Below, piece after piece: positions 1,072 through 22,999 of a DNA stretch of 64,000 bases. The translations under genes were made by a program, and so were the position numbers. Position 1 is the stretch's first letter. Each line of letters opens with the position of its first letter. This DNA comes from Escherichia coli (GTDB lineage Bacteria; Pseudomonadota; Gammaproteobacteria; Enterobacterales; Enterobacteriaceae): assembly GCF_051903065.1 (NCBI RefSeq), contig NZ_CP178438.1; one strand, written 5' to 3'. Below the pieces are notes generated by a model. That model was not told the origin of the DNA. It worked only from the letters and a program-made list of their open reading frames with translations, and did not search any database.

Positions 1072-1575
1072 TTATTGATAGTGTTTTATGTTCAGATAAT
1101 GCCCGATGACTTTGTCATGCAGCTCCACCGATTTTGAGAACGACAGCGACTTCCGTCCCAGCCGTGCCAGGTGCTGCCTCAGATTCAGGTTATGCCGCTC
1201 AATTCGCTGCGTATATCGCTTGCTGATTACGTGCAGCTTTCCCTTCAGGCGGGATTCATACAGCGGACAGCCATCCGTCATCCATATCACCACGTCAAAG
1301 GGTGACAGCAGGCTCATAAGACGCCCCAGCGTCGCCATAGTGCGTTCACCGAATACGTGCGCAACAACCGTCTTCCGGAGCCTGTCATACGCGTAAAACA
1401 GCCAGCGCTGGCGCGATTTAGCCCCGACATAGCCCCACTGTTCGTCCATTTCCGCGCAGACGATGACGTCACTGCCCGGCTGTATGCGCGAGGTTACCGA
1501 CTGCGGCCTGAGTTTTTTAAGTGACGTAAAATCGTGTTGAGGCCAACGCCCATAATGCGGGCTGTTGCCCGGCAT
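1072..1575 (-). CDS. insB: IS1 transposase InsB (expressed as InsAB' by -1 frameshift)
   Basis: 167-aa [30 protein letters not shown]…, recognisable as IS1 InsB. Confidence 0.95.
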
Positions 1576-1769
1576 CCAACGCCATTCATGGCCATATCAA
1601 TGATTTTCTGGTGCGTACCGGGTTGAGAAGCGGTGTAAGTGAACTGCAGTTGCCATGTTTTACGGCAGTGAGAGCAGAGATAGCGCTGATGTCCGGCGGT
1701 GCTTTTGCCGTTACGCACCACCCCGTCAGTAGCTGAACAGGAGGGACAGCTGATAGAAACAGAAGCCAC
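1494..1769 (-). CDS. insA: IS1 InsA (repressor / N-terminal part of transposase)
   Basis: 91-aa [46 protein letters not shown]…, recognisable as IS1 InsA with its zinc-finger-like CxxC…CxxC. Confidence 0.95.
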
Positions 1770-1824
1770 TGGAGCACCTCAAAAACACCATCATACACTA
1801 AATCAGTAAGTTGGCAGCATCACC

Positions 1825-2928
1825 GCAAAACAGTTTCCCTCCTCACGCAATCTGGAAAAATTTGGTGAGGCCCGACAAGATTTAACCATAAAAGAACTGG
1901 CTGAAAAATTTCTGGCACTGAAAGAAACTGAAGTCGCCAAAACATCACTCAACACATACCGTGCCGTCATCAAAAATATCCTAAGCATAATCGGTGAAAA
2001 AAATCTTGCCTCATCGATTAATAAAGAAAAATTACTGGAGGTTCGTAAAGAGCTACTGACTGGATACCAGATCCCCAAAAGTAACTATATTGTTACACAA
2101 CCAGGGAGATCGGCTGTAACTGTAAATAATTACATGACAAATCTTAACGCCGTGTTCCAGTTTGGTGTTGATAACGGTTACCTGGCAGATAATCCGTTTA
2201 AGGGGATCTCGCCATTAAAGGAATCAAGAACCATTCCGGATCCTCTTTCGCGGGAGGAATTTATCCGTCTTATCGATGCGTGCAGAAATCAGCAAGCAAA
2301 AAATTTATGGTGTGTTTCTGTTTATACTGGCGTTCGCCCTGGTGAGCTGTGTGCACTTGGATGGGAGGACATAGATCTGAAAAATGGAACAATGATGATC
2401 AGGAGAAATTTAGCAAAAGACCGTTTCACGGTACCAAAAACACAGGCGGGAACCAATCGGGTCATTCATCTTATTAAGCCAGCAATCGACGCTCTCCGGA
2501 GTCAGATGACATTAACGAGACTGAGCAAAGAGCATATCATTGATGTTCACCTCAGAGAGTATGGCAGAACAGAAAAACAAAAATGCACCTTTGTTTTTCA
2601 ACCTGAAGTATCAGCGAGAGTAAAAAATTATGGTGACCATTTTACCGTTGACTCAATAAGGCAGATGTGGGACGCAGCGATAAAACGTGCCGGACTCCGC
2701 CATCGAAAATCATATCAGTCGAGACATACTTATGCCTGCTGGTCGCTGACTGCTGGTGCTAACCCGGCATTTATAGCAAACCAGATGGGCCATGCAGATG
2801 CGCAAATGGTATTTCAGGTATACGGAAAATGGATGTCTGAAAACAATAATGCACAGGTAGCTTTGTTAAATACACAGTTAAGCGAGTTTGCCCCAACCAT
2901 ACCCCATAACGAAGCAATGAAAAATTAA
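1825..2928 (+). pseudogene. intQ: prophage tyrosine integrase, 5'-truncated (open frame of 368 codons continues from the IS1 junction; no start codon until 2134)
   Basis: Reading frame open from the IS1 end to TAA at 2926-2928. C-terminal catalytic domain motifs are visible (…GVRPGELCALGWEDIDL…, …HLIKPAIDAL…, …SRHTYACWSLTAGANPAFIANQMGHAD…). The N-terminus is missing. Confidence 0.8.
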
Positions 2929-19916: not shown

Positions 19917-21170
19917 GTGAGCCGTACTACAACTGTTGATGGCGCTCCGGCAAGCGACACTGACAAGCAAAGCATTTCTCAGCCAAATCAATTTATTAAA
20001 CGCGGTACGCCGCAATTTATGCGCGTCACCCTGGCGCTGTTCTCTGCCGGACTGGCAACATTTGCACTTCTCTATTGTGTGCAGCCTATCCTTCCGGTGC
20101 TTTCGCAGGAGTTTGGCTTAACGCCCGCGAACAGTAGTATTTCACTGTCCATTTCCACGGCGATGTTGGCTATTGGTTTGCTGTTTACTGGCCCCCTATC
20201 CGATGCCATTGGTCGCAAACCAGTGATGGTCACGGCGCTACTGTTGGCCTCCATTTGTACGTTACTTTCGACAATGATGACCAGCTGGCACGGCATTTTG
20301 ATTATGCGCGCCTTGATTGGGCTTTCGTTAAGTGGCGTGGCAGCTGTTGGCATGACTTATCTTAGCGAGGAAATCCATCCCAGTTTCGTGGCCTTTTCGA
20401 TGGGGTTGTATATCAGCGGCAACTCAATTGGCGGCATGAGCGGACGCTTAATTAGCGGTGTCTTCACGGACTTTTTCAACTGGCGAATTGCTCTGGCGGC
20501 TATCGGTTGTTTCGCGCTAGCCTCGGCGTTGATGTTCTGGAAAATCCTCCCGGAATCACGCCATTTTCGCCCGACTTCGCTGCGACCTAAGTCGTTGTTT
20601 ATCAACTTTCGTCTGCACTGGCGTGACCGGGGATTACCGTTATTGTTCGCAGAAGGCTTTTTGCTGATGGGGTCGTTCGTCACGCTGTTTAATTACATCG
20701 GCTATCGGTTGATGCTCTCCCCCTGGCATGTCAGTCAGGCCGTGGTTGGCTTATTATCGCTGGCTTATTTGACCGGTACATGGAGCTCACCCAAAGCCGG
20801 AACCATGACCACCCGCTATGGGCGTGGTCCAGTGATGTTGTTTTCGACGGGGGTTATGCTGTTTGGTTTACTGATGACCTTATTCAGCTCGCTGTGGCTG
20901 ATCTTTGCCGGAATGTTACTCTTCTCAGCAGGATTCTTCGCAGCCCACTCAGTTGCCAGCAGCTGGATCGGCCCCCGCGCAAAACGCGCTAAAGGCCAGG
21001 CCTCCTCGCTGTATCTGTTCAGTTACTATCTGGGGTCGAGTATTGTCGGGACGCTGGGTGGTGTTTTCTGGCATAACTATGGCTGGAACGGCGTCGGCGC
21101 ATTTATTGCTCTGATGCTGGTCATTGCTCTGCTGGTCGGGACGCGTTTGCATCGTCGTCTGCACGCCTGA
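19917..21170 (+). CDS. ynfM: MFS transporter
   Basis: GTG start at 19917; 417 aa; 12-TM-like hydrophobic profile. Divergent from ynfL. Confidence 0.85.
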   Translation: MSRTTTVDGAPASDTDKQSISQPNQFIKRGTPQFMRVTLALFSAGLATFALLYCVQPILPVLSQEFGLTPANSSISLSISTAMLAIGLLFTGPLSDAIGRKPVMVTALLLASICTLLSTMMTSWHGILIMRALIGLSLSGVAAVGMTYLSEEIHPSFVAFSMGLYISGNSIGGMSGRLISGVFTDFFNWRIALAAIGCFALASALMFWKILPESRHFRPTSLRPKSLFINFRLHWRDRGLPLLFAEGFLLMGSFVTLFNYIGYRLMLSPWHVSQAVVGLLSLAYLTGTWSSPKAGTMTTRYGRGPVMLFSTGVMLFGLLMTLFSSLWLIFAGMLLFSAGFFAAHSVASSWIGPRAKRAKGQASSLYLFSYYLGSSIVGTLGGVFWHNYGWNGVGAFIALMLVIALLVGTRLHRRLHA

Positions 21171-21172
21171 AA

Positions 21173-21212
21173 AATAAGTCCGGACTGCGGTAAATACCCG
21201 TCCGGACTTATT
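21173..21212 (+). terminator. stem-loop downstream of ynfM (aataagtccggac…gtccggacttatt)
   Basis: 13-bp perfect inverted repeat directly after the ynfM stop. The downstream T-tract is weak, so it may be a REP-like element rather than a classic intrinsic terminator. Confidence 0.45.
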
Positions 21213-21593
21213 GCCTACTCAAACCAACGTTAATAGCCATCCTAAAATAGACGAAGCGCCAGCCAATTCCCGCAGCGCGTCTAGCGTCATCAGGATTATA
21301 AGTACCCAAATAAACGGATTCATTTTGCTGTGTGTCATTTATTACTGATGCGCAGTTATTCTACCGCTTTGTAAGTAGTAAAATAGTTAACCCGATCAAG
21401 ACTACTATTATTGGTAGCTAAATTTTCCTTAAGTCACAATACGTTATTATCAACGCTGTAATTTATTCAGCGTTTGTACATATCGTTACACGCTGAAACC
21501 AACCACTCACGGAAGTCTGCCATTCCCAGGGATATAGTTATTTCAACGGCCCCGCAGTGGGGTTAAATGAAAAAACAAATTGAGGGTATGACA

Positions 21594-21902
21594 ATGAAAA
21601 AAGTATTAGCTCTGGTTGTTGCCGCTGCTATGGGTCTGTCTTCTGCCGCCTTTGCTGCAGAGACTGCGACCACACCTGCTCCGACTGCGACGACCACCAA
21701 AGCAGCACCGGCGAAAACTACACATCATAAAAAACAGCATAAAGCAGCACCTGCCCAGAAAGCGCAGGCGGCTAAAAAGCATCATAAAAATGCGAAAGCT
21801 GAACAGAAAGCCCCAGAACAAAAAGCGCAGGCAGCGAAGAAACACGCCAAGAAACACAGCCATCAGCAACCGGCAAAACCTGCTGCACAACCCGCAGCGT
21901 AA
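21594..21902 (+). CDS. asr: acid shock protein (periplasmic, Lys/Ala/His-rich, low complexity)
   Basis: Start at [21 protein letters not shown] (signal peptide); 102 aa with repeated [10 protein letters not shown](A/H)K motifs. Confidence 0.9.
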
Positions 21903-21994
21903 GTTTTCAACAGTAATGCTGGCGCGCCCCCTCGCGCCTGAAAATTACGGTGCTAAGCGGGTAACGTTTAGCACCGCCTTTAGCGGAGGGTAGT

Positions 21995-22078
21995 ATGGTG
22001 GGCCGTTATCGCTTTGAGTTCATTCTTATCATCCTTATTTTATGCGCACTGATTGCCGCCCGTTTTTATCTTTCCTGA
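21995..22078 (+). CDS. ydgU: small hydrophobic protein, 27 aa
   Basis: ATG at 21995: MVGRYRFEFILIILILCALIAARFYLS*. Single predicted TM segment; below the track cutoff. Position between asr and ydgD fits ydgU. Confidence 0.55.
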   Translation: MVGRYRFEFILIILILCALIAARFYLS

Positions 22079-22177
22079 CTGTAGTTATCTGATTTTACTC
22101 CCACTTTCATCCCGTCCCGTCTATAGTATTTATGAGGGTTTGCTTTTAATAATCATAATTACCCACCAGAGTGTGAT

Positions 22178-22999
22178 ATGCGTACAACCATTGCTGTAGT
22201 GTTGGGTGCAATTAGTTTGACGTCTGCTTTTGTGTTTGCAGATAAACCAGACGTTGCCAAATCGGCAAACGATGAGGTCAGCACCCTGTTTTTTGGTCAT
22301 GATGATCGTGTGCCAGTGAATGACACGACCCAATCACCGTGGGATGCGGTTGGGCAACTGGAAACGGCCAGCGGCAATTTATGTACGGCGACGCTGATTG
22401 CACCCAATCTGGCATTAACGGCAGGACACTGTTTATTGACACCTCCAAGGGGTAAAGCCGATAAAGCAGTGGCGCTGCGTTTTGTGTCAAATAAAGGTCT
22501 TTGGCGCTATGACATCCACGACATAGAAGGCCGCGTTGATCCGACACTGGGAAAGCGGTTAAAAGCAGATGGGGATGGTTGGATTGTACCTCCCGCAGCC
22601 GCGCCGTGGGACTTCGGATTGATTGTGCTACGTAATCCCCCTTCTGGCATTACGCCGTTGCCGTTATTTGAGGGAGATAAAGCCGCGCTTACCGCCGCAT
22701 TAAAAGCGGCAGGTCGTAAAGTGACTCAGGCAGGATACCCTGAAGATCATCTCGATACGTTGTACAGTCATCAAAACTGTGAAGTGACTGGCTGGGCGCA
22801 AACGTCGGTGATGTCACATCAGTGCGATACCTTGCCGGGTGACAGCGGTTCGCCTCTGATGTTGCATACCGATGACGGCTGGCAATTAATTGGGGTGCAA
22901 AGTTCGGCTCCTGCCGCGAAAGATCGCTGGCGCGCCGATAACCGGGCCATTTCTGTTACCGGTTTTCGCGACAAGCTGGATCAACTGTCGCAAAAATAA
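22178..22999 (+). CDS. ydgD: secreted trypsin-like serine peptidase (S1 family)
   Basis: Signal peptide; catalytic motifs TAGHC (His) and GDSGSPL (Ser). Confidence 0.9.

Follow-up and report, generated by a model that had tools for sequence, protein, structure and literature searches.

In Escherichia coli K-12, the acid-shock gene asr is induced about 1000-fold by acid and accounts for about 2% of the Ribo-seq reads at pH 4.4 (PMC10746267). According to work cited in that study, the protein Asr has been described experimentally as intrinsically disordered (PMC10746267). [quoted passage not shown] This operon is induced by RstB-RstA. Its two products act back on this system in opposite directions: SamT binds the kinase RstB and provides negative feedback, and Asr gives positive feedback on RstB-RstA (PMC13425233). 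The consensus sequence of the RstA box and the binding of RstA have been published (PMC4117788, PMC11135836). At asr, the RstA signal in electrophoretic mobility shift assays is lost when the box is deleted (PMC11135836), and reporters carrying the asr promoter (Pasr) are RstA-dependent (PMC13425233). The published promoter layout has the RstA box at -77 to -55 and a "PhoB box" at -39 to -22, the latter separated from the -10 element by a 9-bp spacer (PMC9026648).

The window analyzed here, a stretch of 64,000 nucleotides of E. coli DNA, contains this gene at 21594..21902. Compared with the asr gene of K-12 (b1597), the window copy has the same length (102 residues), the same neighbors, the same promoter with its RstA box, and the same downstream ydgU/samT. 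Only two amino acid changes (T25A and T67A) separate the two proteins, and strains PS10-3 and B185 carry the same allele as the window. Taken together, the locus is best explained, with high confidence, as asr, encoding a secreted, basic, and disordered protein under an RstA-box promoter, with overlapping open reading frames (ORFs) that are non-coding by-products and a weak resemblance to a Pho box that is probably non-functional.

Identity and Coding Sequence of asr

21594..21902, plus strand: coding sequence of asr, acid-shock periplasmic protein Asr, 102 codons plus TAA (PF06392, NF033636, and RefSeq annotation)
21582..21586, plus strand: Shine-Dalgarno sequence GAGGG, 7 nt 5' of the asr ATG, with GAGG kept in nearly all loci

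The gene at 21594..21902 is the known E. coli acid-shock gene asr, correctly named and placed in the initial annotation. Its product matches the Pfam family PF06392 with 46.8 bits (curated cut-off 24.9) and the NCBIfam equivalog NF033636, "acid resistance repetitive basic protein Asr," with 99.1 bits (cut-off 50). The surrounding 930 bases (21171..22100) have a match in 5,422 of the 5,426 complete E. coli genomes, with 100% identity to E. coli PS10-3 and 98.8% identity to BW25113. RefSeq annotates asr in both of these strains, and the gene order ynfM-asr-ydgU-ydgD is common to the window and these genomes.

In the ORF list, asr starts with the ATG at 21594 and ends with the TAA at 21900..21902. 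Three in-frame ATG codons are available (21567, 21588, and 21594). The two upstream ones are not conserved across the aligned loci, and the one at 21594 is. The 102-codon form is right because only ATG 21594 and its GAGG(G) are conserved. A longer form of 111 codons starting from ATG 21567 was considered and rejected, given that this ATG is missing in many orthologues.

For comparisons with other species, 35 orthologous loci were taken from other species representatives, and the broader counts given below cover 38 loci.

Composition and Predicted Properties of Asr

21594..21656, plus strand: signal peptide, 21 codons, almost invariant in 36 aligned orthologues, predicted helix
21747..21797, plus strand: repeat unit 1, with the core QKAQAAKK nearly invariant in orthologues
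21810..21860, plus strand: repeat unit 2, from repeat analysis and the orthologue alignment

Asr consists of a signal peptide, a stretch rich in Thr, Ala, and Pro, and two repeat units of about 21 residues each. The orthologue alignment and the predicted helix both point to an N-terminal Sec-type signal peptide, whose cleavage site we take to be after residue 21. The mature protein thus has 81 residues (A25, K17, T9, Q9, P8, H8, E3, N1, and S1). Of these, 93.8% are Lys, Ala, His, Gln, Pro, or Thr, in line with the initial annotation, which described the mature protein as composed almost entirely of these six. Lys and His together make up 31%, and there are three acidic residues.

The same annotation called the protein highly repetitive. 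Repeats do exist, and the mature part is of the basic, Lys/Ala/His/Gln-rich type with QKAQAAKKH cores that is characteristic of the Asr family. The repetition is modest, with just two units of about 21 residues in this allele and their cores (QKAQAAKKH) 21 residues apart, and the exact 10-residue string that was said to recur is found once. At the DNA level, a 36-nt repeat (21746..21781 and 21809..21844) is 75% identical between its two copies and has a spacing of 63 nt. Tandem Repeats Finder reported just a 12-nt array of 2.5 copies at 21832..21862 and missed the 63-nt periodicity. Among the orthologues, the number of cores ranges from one to five and the protein length from 69 to 166 aa.

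The mature protein is predicted to be intrinsically disordered, in agreement with how Asr has been described in the literature. In an AlphaFold2 model built from a 36-sequence alignment, the mean pLDDT is 55.2, the sole helix covers residues 2-14 within the signal peptide, and no secondary structure follows residue 14. A sequence search for a relative with a solved structure found none. The calculated net charge of Asr rises from +14.7 at pH 7 to +22.6 at pH 4.5 because of its eight histidines. Published work has linked a charge switch of this kind to the chaperone/aggregase activity of Asr and to its role in protecting the outer membrane. Asr would accordingly be viewed, following this literature, as a secreted, basic, and disordered protein in which an acid-driven charge switch may underlie the chaperone/aggregase role and the protection of the outer membrane.

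Overlapping Open Reading Frames

21606..21890, minus strand: ORF of 94 codons with a TTG start, antisense to asr with its codons in register, considered non-coding (ORF list)
21616..21993, plus strand: ORF of 125 codons with a TTG start, reading in frame +1 relative to asr and extending across the asr-samT spacer, considered non-coding (ORF list)

Two long ORFs overlap asr, and both are present as the initial annotation described them. The stop-free run around the minus-strand ORF, which is in register with asr, spans 21609..21944, and that of the +1 frame spans 21610..21990. Based on the sequence comparisons below and on a published candidate list, both ORFs are judged to be non-coding by-products of the composition of Asr, and neither is considered a gene. 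The +1 frame can acquire a stop codon only where the second base of a sense codon is T, as in codons for Phe, Leu, Ile, Met, or Val; all of these residues are missing from mature Asr. A stop codon in the in-register antisense frame arises only from the sense codons TTA, CTA, or TCA. Mature Asr has no Leu and a single Ser (Ser89), encoded by AGC at 21858..21860.

The effect of composition was quantified with 5,000 synonymous recodings of mature Asr. The +1 frame was stop-free in 100% of the recodings and the in-register antisense frame in 86.8%, and the remaining three frames were stop-free in 0.5, 1.3, and 8.4%. The observed stop counts in the five alternative frames (0, 0, 5, 3, and 2) agree with this result. 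For the +1 frame, openness is strictly a consequence of composition, since a stop codon cannot be introduced there by any synonymous change to mature Asr. For comparison, among 81-codon segments of the other long ORFs in the window, the +1 frame is open in 3.7% and the antisense frame in 18.4%.

Selection was assessed by pairwise dN/dS among four 102-codon Escherichia alleles in three frames. The values were 0.13-0.31 in the asr frame, 0.72-1.75 in the +1 frame, and 0.26-1.23 in the antisense frame. When the more divergent pairs are considered, dN/dS is about 1 in both alternative frames. Among these four alleles, purifying selection was seen in the asr frame only and was found in neither the antisense nor the +1 frame. 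Likewise, retention of either ORF beyond what composition provides was not found across the 38 loci. Searches of Pfam and NCBIfam returned no match for either ORF. The candidate small-ORF table of an acid-stress Ribo-seq study (PMC10746267) has no entry overlapping asr, although that table was not designed for out-of-frame translation inside a heavily translated gene. The earlier opinion that the overlapping ORFs are non-coding is thus borne out by the broken +1 frame, the restriction of selection to the asr frame, and the lack of family matches.

The antisense ORF could alternatively be a real overlapping gene with a hydrophobic product rich in Phe, Leu, Arg, and Cys. Over the mature part, its frame is stop-free in 34 of the 38 loci, as such a gene would have it. 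However, this proportion (89%) is near the 87% expected from composition, and the openness of this frame is therefore better viewed, as proposed initially, as following from the composition of Asr. Moreover, TCA codons, each of which gives an antisense stop, are not avoided, because four of the 52 Ser codons in the orthologues are TCA. The closest pair of alleles (window and K-12) has an antisense dN/dS of 0.26, which is as low as in the sense frame, but this value comes from four differences only, and the divergent pairs have values of 0.76-1.23. The substitutions are mostly at the third codon position of asr, corresponding to antisense position 1; between the window allele and that of locus L004, this is the case for 28 of the 40 differences. 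The ORF also has a TTG start with no visible Shine-Dalgarno sequence and no promoter-like site, and it is unannotated in the sampled RefSeq genomes. A search for sigma-70 consensus promoters found none on either strand, which says little given that this is expected for an activator-dependent promoter. An overlapping antisense gene is thus highly improbable, and a by-product of the Asr composition is the preferred reading of this ORF.

Similarly, the +1 ORF could be functional, either as a gene or through frameshifting on the A-rich asr message that carries ribosomes to the samT start. The asr sequence does have A-runs such as CATAAAAAACAG, and in both the window and K-12 the stop codon of this ORF (21991..21993) sits 1 nt before the samT ATG at 21995. 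Nevertheless, the +1 frame over the mature part is open in only eight of the 38 loci and interrupted in the other 30. Among the hydrophobic codons in the orthologues, 91 of 136 create a +1 stop, which indicates that nothing holds this frame open. In the majority of loci, the +1 frame first meets a stop a few codons past the end of asr, and samT may lie in frame 0, 1, or 2 with respect to asr, depending on the locus. In addition, dN/dS in this frame is 0.72-1.75, and samT has its own Shine-Dalgarno sequence, GGAGG (see also PMC13425233). Coupling of the +1 ORF to samT by frameshifting was rejected, as the adjacency of stop and start codons is not conserved. There is consequently very little probability that this ORF has a function, and it is also best regarded as a compositional by-product.

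The +1-frame product has been entered in the public protein collection as EFF05540.1, a "conserved hypothetical protein" of E. coli B185. In the gene table of the B185 contig, asr is not called at this location, although the asr ORF is intact there and identical to that of the window. While the deposition could be taken as support for a functional +1 ORF, the intact asr of B185 indicates that this record is simply an annotation miscall. More generally, proteins of low complexity can keep other frames open over long distances, and an ORF arising in this way can displace the true gene in annotation, as in B185.

Promoter Region and the Question of PhoB Control

21477..21490, plus strand: RstA box TACATATCGTTACA, at -68 to -55 from the inferred transcription start, a perfect match to TACATNTNGTTACA
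21474..21514, plus strand: conserved promoter block, made up of the RstA box and another 24 conserved bases (CGCYGAWACCAAYCACTCACGGA) that extend to the -35 region (footprint)
21506..21523, plus strand: "PhoB box" of the literature (-39 to -22), CTCACGGAAGTCTGCCAT, a weak match (position from PMC9026648)
21533..21538, plus strand: -10 hexamer TATAGT, with the inferred transcription start at 21545 (conserved position; published numbering)
21548..21564, plus strand: hairpin GGCCCC-GCAGU-GGGGUU in the 5' untranslated region (UTR), with its first base 3 nt away from the inferred 5' end
21219..21338, minus strand: small ORF of 39 codons, KPN_01571 family (RefSeq; NCBIfam NF033695, 63.3 bits, cut-off 35)

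The region between the ynfM stop codon (ending at 21170) and the asr ATG (21171..21593) is 423 bp long, as stated in the initial annotation. The conserved element in this region is a perfect RstA box, which that annotation had missed. Within the 64 kb, the consensus TACATNTNGTTACA is matched perfectly at this one site, and no match occurred in 1,000 random sequences. The box is present in all 38 loci, 116-122 nt 5' of the asr ATG. When 37 loci representing more than 15 genera are compared by phylogenetic footprinting, the 41-nt block at 21474..21514 is almost invariant. We infer a transcription start at 21545, with TATAGT as the -10 element, because the published promoter coordinates then fit exactly. 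In the proposed mechanism, asr would be transcribed from near 21545 by an activator-dependent promoter. Following the literature, the acid-responsive RstB-RstA system would turn the gene on through the RstA box at -68 to -55.

The hairpin in the 5' UTR (21548..21564) has a folding energy of -9 kcal/mol and a z-score of -0.2, which is not significant by energy alone. It is almost invariant in the 37 loci, with a paired C/G deletion in one locus (L023) and a change from G-U to A-U in another (L007). This hairpin may stabilize the very abundant asr message.

The initial annotation suggested instead that the upstream region contains TGTCA-type repeats that could be Pho-box-like. Such repeats are absent. 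The 423 bp contain one TGTCA (21333) and one TGACA (21589), against an expectation of about 0.5 (P for at least two = 0.10), and the TGTCA overlaps the start codon of the minus-strand small ORF at 21219..21338. A Pho-box-like element fared no better in a scan with the 18-bp consensus CTGTCATAWAWCTGTCAY against random sequences of the same composition: the best matches have mismatches at six of the 18 positions, a level equalled by 57.5% of the random sequences and thus compatible with chance.

A related possibility is that asr belongs directly to the Pho regulon and is induced by PhoB binding to an upstream Pho box. This goes back to older literature, in which a PhoB box was placed at -39 to -22 and, as relayed by later papers, phoBR-dependent induction of asr was reported (Suziedeliene, 1999). 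The segment concerned (21506..21523) is one of the three best matches in the scan, also with 6/18 mismatches. It lies 9 bp from the -10 hexamer TATAGT, a position that fits the layout of Pho promoters, in which the box takes the place of the -35 element about 10 bp from the -10 element, but its sequence match is weak. Its downstream half, CTGCCAT (21517..21523), is one mismatch from CTGTCAT, and two other Escherichia lineages have perfect half-sites at the same place. This half-site is Pho-like in Escherichia only. The upstream half is conserved in 37 promoters as CTCAC[G/T]G, which has four mismatches to the seven positions of the Pho half-site, and the mean at the PhoB-box position in 37 loci is 9.4 mismatches out of 18; a Pho box is therefore not what is conserved here. 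Furthermore, genome-wide ChIP-seq and RNA-seq under low phosphate found neither PhoB binding nor PhoB regulation at asr and considered it an unlikely PhoB target (PMC10294691), and the acid induction of asr depends on RstA and the RstA box (PMC13425233, PMC11135836). Direct membership in the Pho regulon is thus unlikely. The resemblance to a Pho box is weak, lineage-specific, and probably non-functional in vivo. A weak Escherichia-specific PhoB input is conceivable, because of the 1999 report on phoBR and the CTGCCAT half-site at the right spacing from the -10 element.

The promoters controlled by PhoB, such as those of pstS and phoA, resemble the asr promoter in having a site for an activator of the OmpR/PhoB family upstream of a weak -35 element. 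What asr shares with promoters of the pstS/phoA type is one CTGCCAT half-site about 9 bp from the -10 element. In contrast to those promoters, asr lacks the pair of CTGTCAT direct repeats spaced 11 bp apart, PhoB occupancy was not seen there in vivo (PMC10294691), and its activator match is the RstA box. The persistent textbook link to Pho is thereby corrected: by sequence, asr resembles an RstA target, in agreement with the recent ChIP-seq results.

The asr-samT Operon and Its Structured Spacer

21995..22078, plus strand: ydgU/samT, small membrane protein of 27 codons, second gene of the operon (NCBIfam NF052476, 70.3 bits)
21921..21938, plus strand: intergenic hairpin A, GGCGCG-CCCCCT-CGCGCC (spacer folding)
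21948..21976, plus strand: intergenic hairpin B, with a stem of 12 bp, located 18 nt 5' of the samT ATG, in a terminator-like position with a weak T-run in Escherichia

Based on the literature and on synteny, asr forms an operon with samT, a relationship that the initial annotation had also missed. A small ORF homologous to samT is found 3' of asr in all 38 loci. The 92-nt spacer between the two genes folds into two strong hairpins, with a folding energy of -38.7 kcal/mol and a z-score of -3.5. In an explicit scan for stems and T-runs, a terminator-like GC-rich hairpin followed by a T-run was found in the spacer of 27 of the 37 loci. In most of these 27 loci, the hairpin is located 16-38 nt 5' of the samT ATG, and the stem sequences vary by genus. 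For hairpin B, compensatory changes affect four of the 12 pairs within Escherichia and Citrobacter; the distance is kept and the T-run is degenerate.

Several other searches were conducted at this locus. An Rfam scan of 21000..22300 gave no match at E ≤ 1. Neither asr nor ydgU appears in the supplements of a Term-seq study (PMC7815308). Terminator-like matches inside asr itself were also noted (three, compared with 1.3 ± 1.3 expected) and were treated as chance occurrences.

In the paper describing samT, the differential expression of asr and samT was named as an open question, and a spacer element was not mentioned (PMC13425233). Tentatively, and with somewhat less than even confidence, the conserved structure in the spacer may act as a partial terminator or an RNA-end element that keeps Asr high relative to SamT and provides a point at which the two feedback arms can be uncoupled. 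If so, this element would allow the positive (Asr) and negative (SamT) feedback on RstB-RstA to be separated. The conserved hairpin between asr and samT is the one lead worth following here, as it bears on the balance between these opposing arms.

Comparison With Known Systems

The Asr homologs of Citrobacter, Enterobacter, Klebsiella, Serratia, Rahnella, Hafnia, and other Enterobacterales share with the window protein the invariant signal peptide, the QKAQAAKKH cores, and a C-terminal tail of the QPAA type. Their loci also share the RstA box, the hairpin in the 5' UTR, and the downstream samT. In contrast, the numbers of cores (1-5) and the protein lengths (69-166 aa) differ among these homologs. 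In many of the orthologues, the +1 frame is broken by Val codons, which are absent from the mature Asr of the window. The spacer differs as well: most orthologous asr-samT spacers have a clear hairpin and T-run, and those of Escherichia have only a degenerate T-run.

With regard to regulation, the mgrB/PhoQ-PhoP system provides a parallel, in that a small membrane peptide feeds back on the kinase that induces it, as the 27-aa SamT does on RstB (PMC13425233). Unlike mgrB, samT comes second in its operon, after a highly expressed gene for a periplasmic protein, with a structured spacer between the two.

Putative regulatory elements in the asr operon

The RstA box (21477..21490, plus strand) is followed directly by a block that is conserved across genera to the same degree as the box itself, and the 5' untranslated region and the spacer between asr and samT each contain predicted RNA structures:

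21491..21514, 24-base block CGCYGAWACCAAYCACTCACGGA, at about -54..-31, directly 3' of the RstA box
21548..21564, 5'-UTR hairpin GGCCCC-GCAGU-GGGGUU, 3 nt past the inferred transcription start at 21545
21903..21994, asr-samT spacer, with hairpins at 21921..21938 and 21948..21976

The tested Pho-box consensus does not fit the 24-base block. Candidate binders are another RstA dimer, RNA polymerase (through its promoter contacts), or some different factor. The 5'-UTR hairpin, including its loop, is near-invariant among the 37 loci from many genera; the variants are a paired C/G deletion in one locus and a change from G-U to A-U in another. This hairpin may act as a 5' mRNA stabilizer or a protein-binding site.

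The spacer has strong predicted structure in the window (z-score of -3.5). A GC hairpin with a T-run downstream of it occurs in the spacer of 27 of the 37 loci, located 16-38 nt upstream of the samT start codon in most of these. The stem sequence varies from genus to genus. Escherichia and Citrobacter retain the hairpin, with four of its 12 pairs covarying, but their T-run is degenerate. This element, which was not discussed in the 2026 samT paper (PMC13425233), may set the asr:samT ratio, either as an attenuating terminator or by stabilizing the 3' end.

Coding sequences and annotation

Across Enterobacterales, the asr coding sequences of the 35 orthologous loci L003-L037 encode one to five units with a QKAQAAKKH core, spaced by 15-25 residues. 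Neighboring units share identical core DNA in some species (Rahnella, Rouxiella), suggesting recent unit duplication or homogenization. For the by-product ORF in the +1 frame (21616..21993, plus strand), a product was deposited from E. coli B185 as a 'conserved hypothetical protein' (GenBank EFF05540.1). Its counterpart lies within 1501..1900 of the B185 locus, where the collection's gene table of the contig has no asr called; the asr ORF of B185 is intact and identical to that of the window.

Just downstream of ynfM is a small ORF:

21219..21338, minus strand, 39 codons, matching the 'KPN_01571 family protein' model of NCBIfam (NF033695) at 63 bits

Its RefSeq length differs by strain: in BW25113 the annotation covers 120 nt, whereas in PS10-3 it covers 72 nt, even though PS10-3 is identical to the window across this region.

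A plasmid-borne copy of ynfM

Four plasmid locations were among the matched places. The IncFII plasmid NZ_OZ546964.1, from a blood-culture E. coli, carries ynfM and the next 171 bp (19917..21341 in the window). The segment stops at 21341, leaving out asr, and has IS5-family transposase pseudogenes on either side. Judging from this arrangement, the presence of this MFS efflux gene on the plasmid looks like IS-mediated capture.
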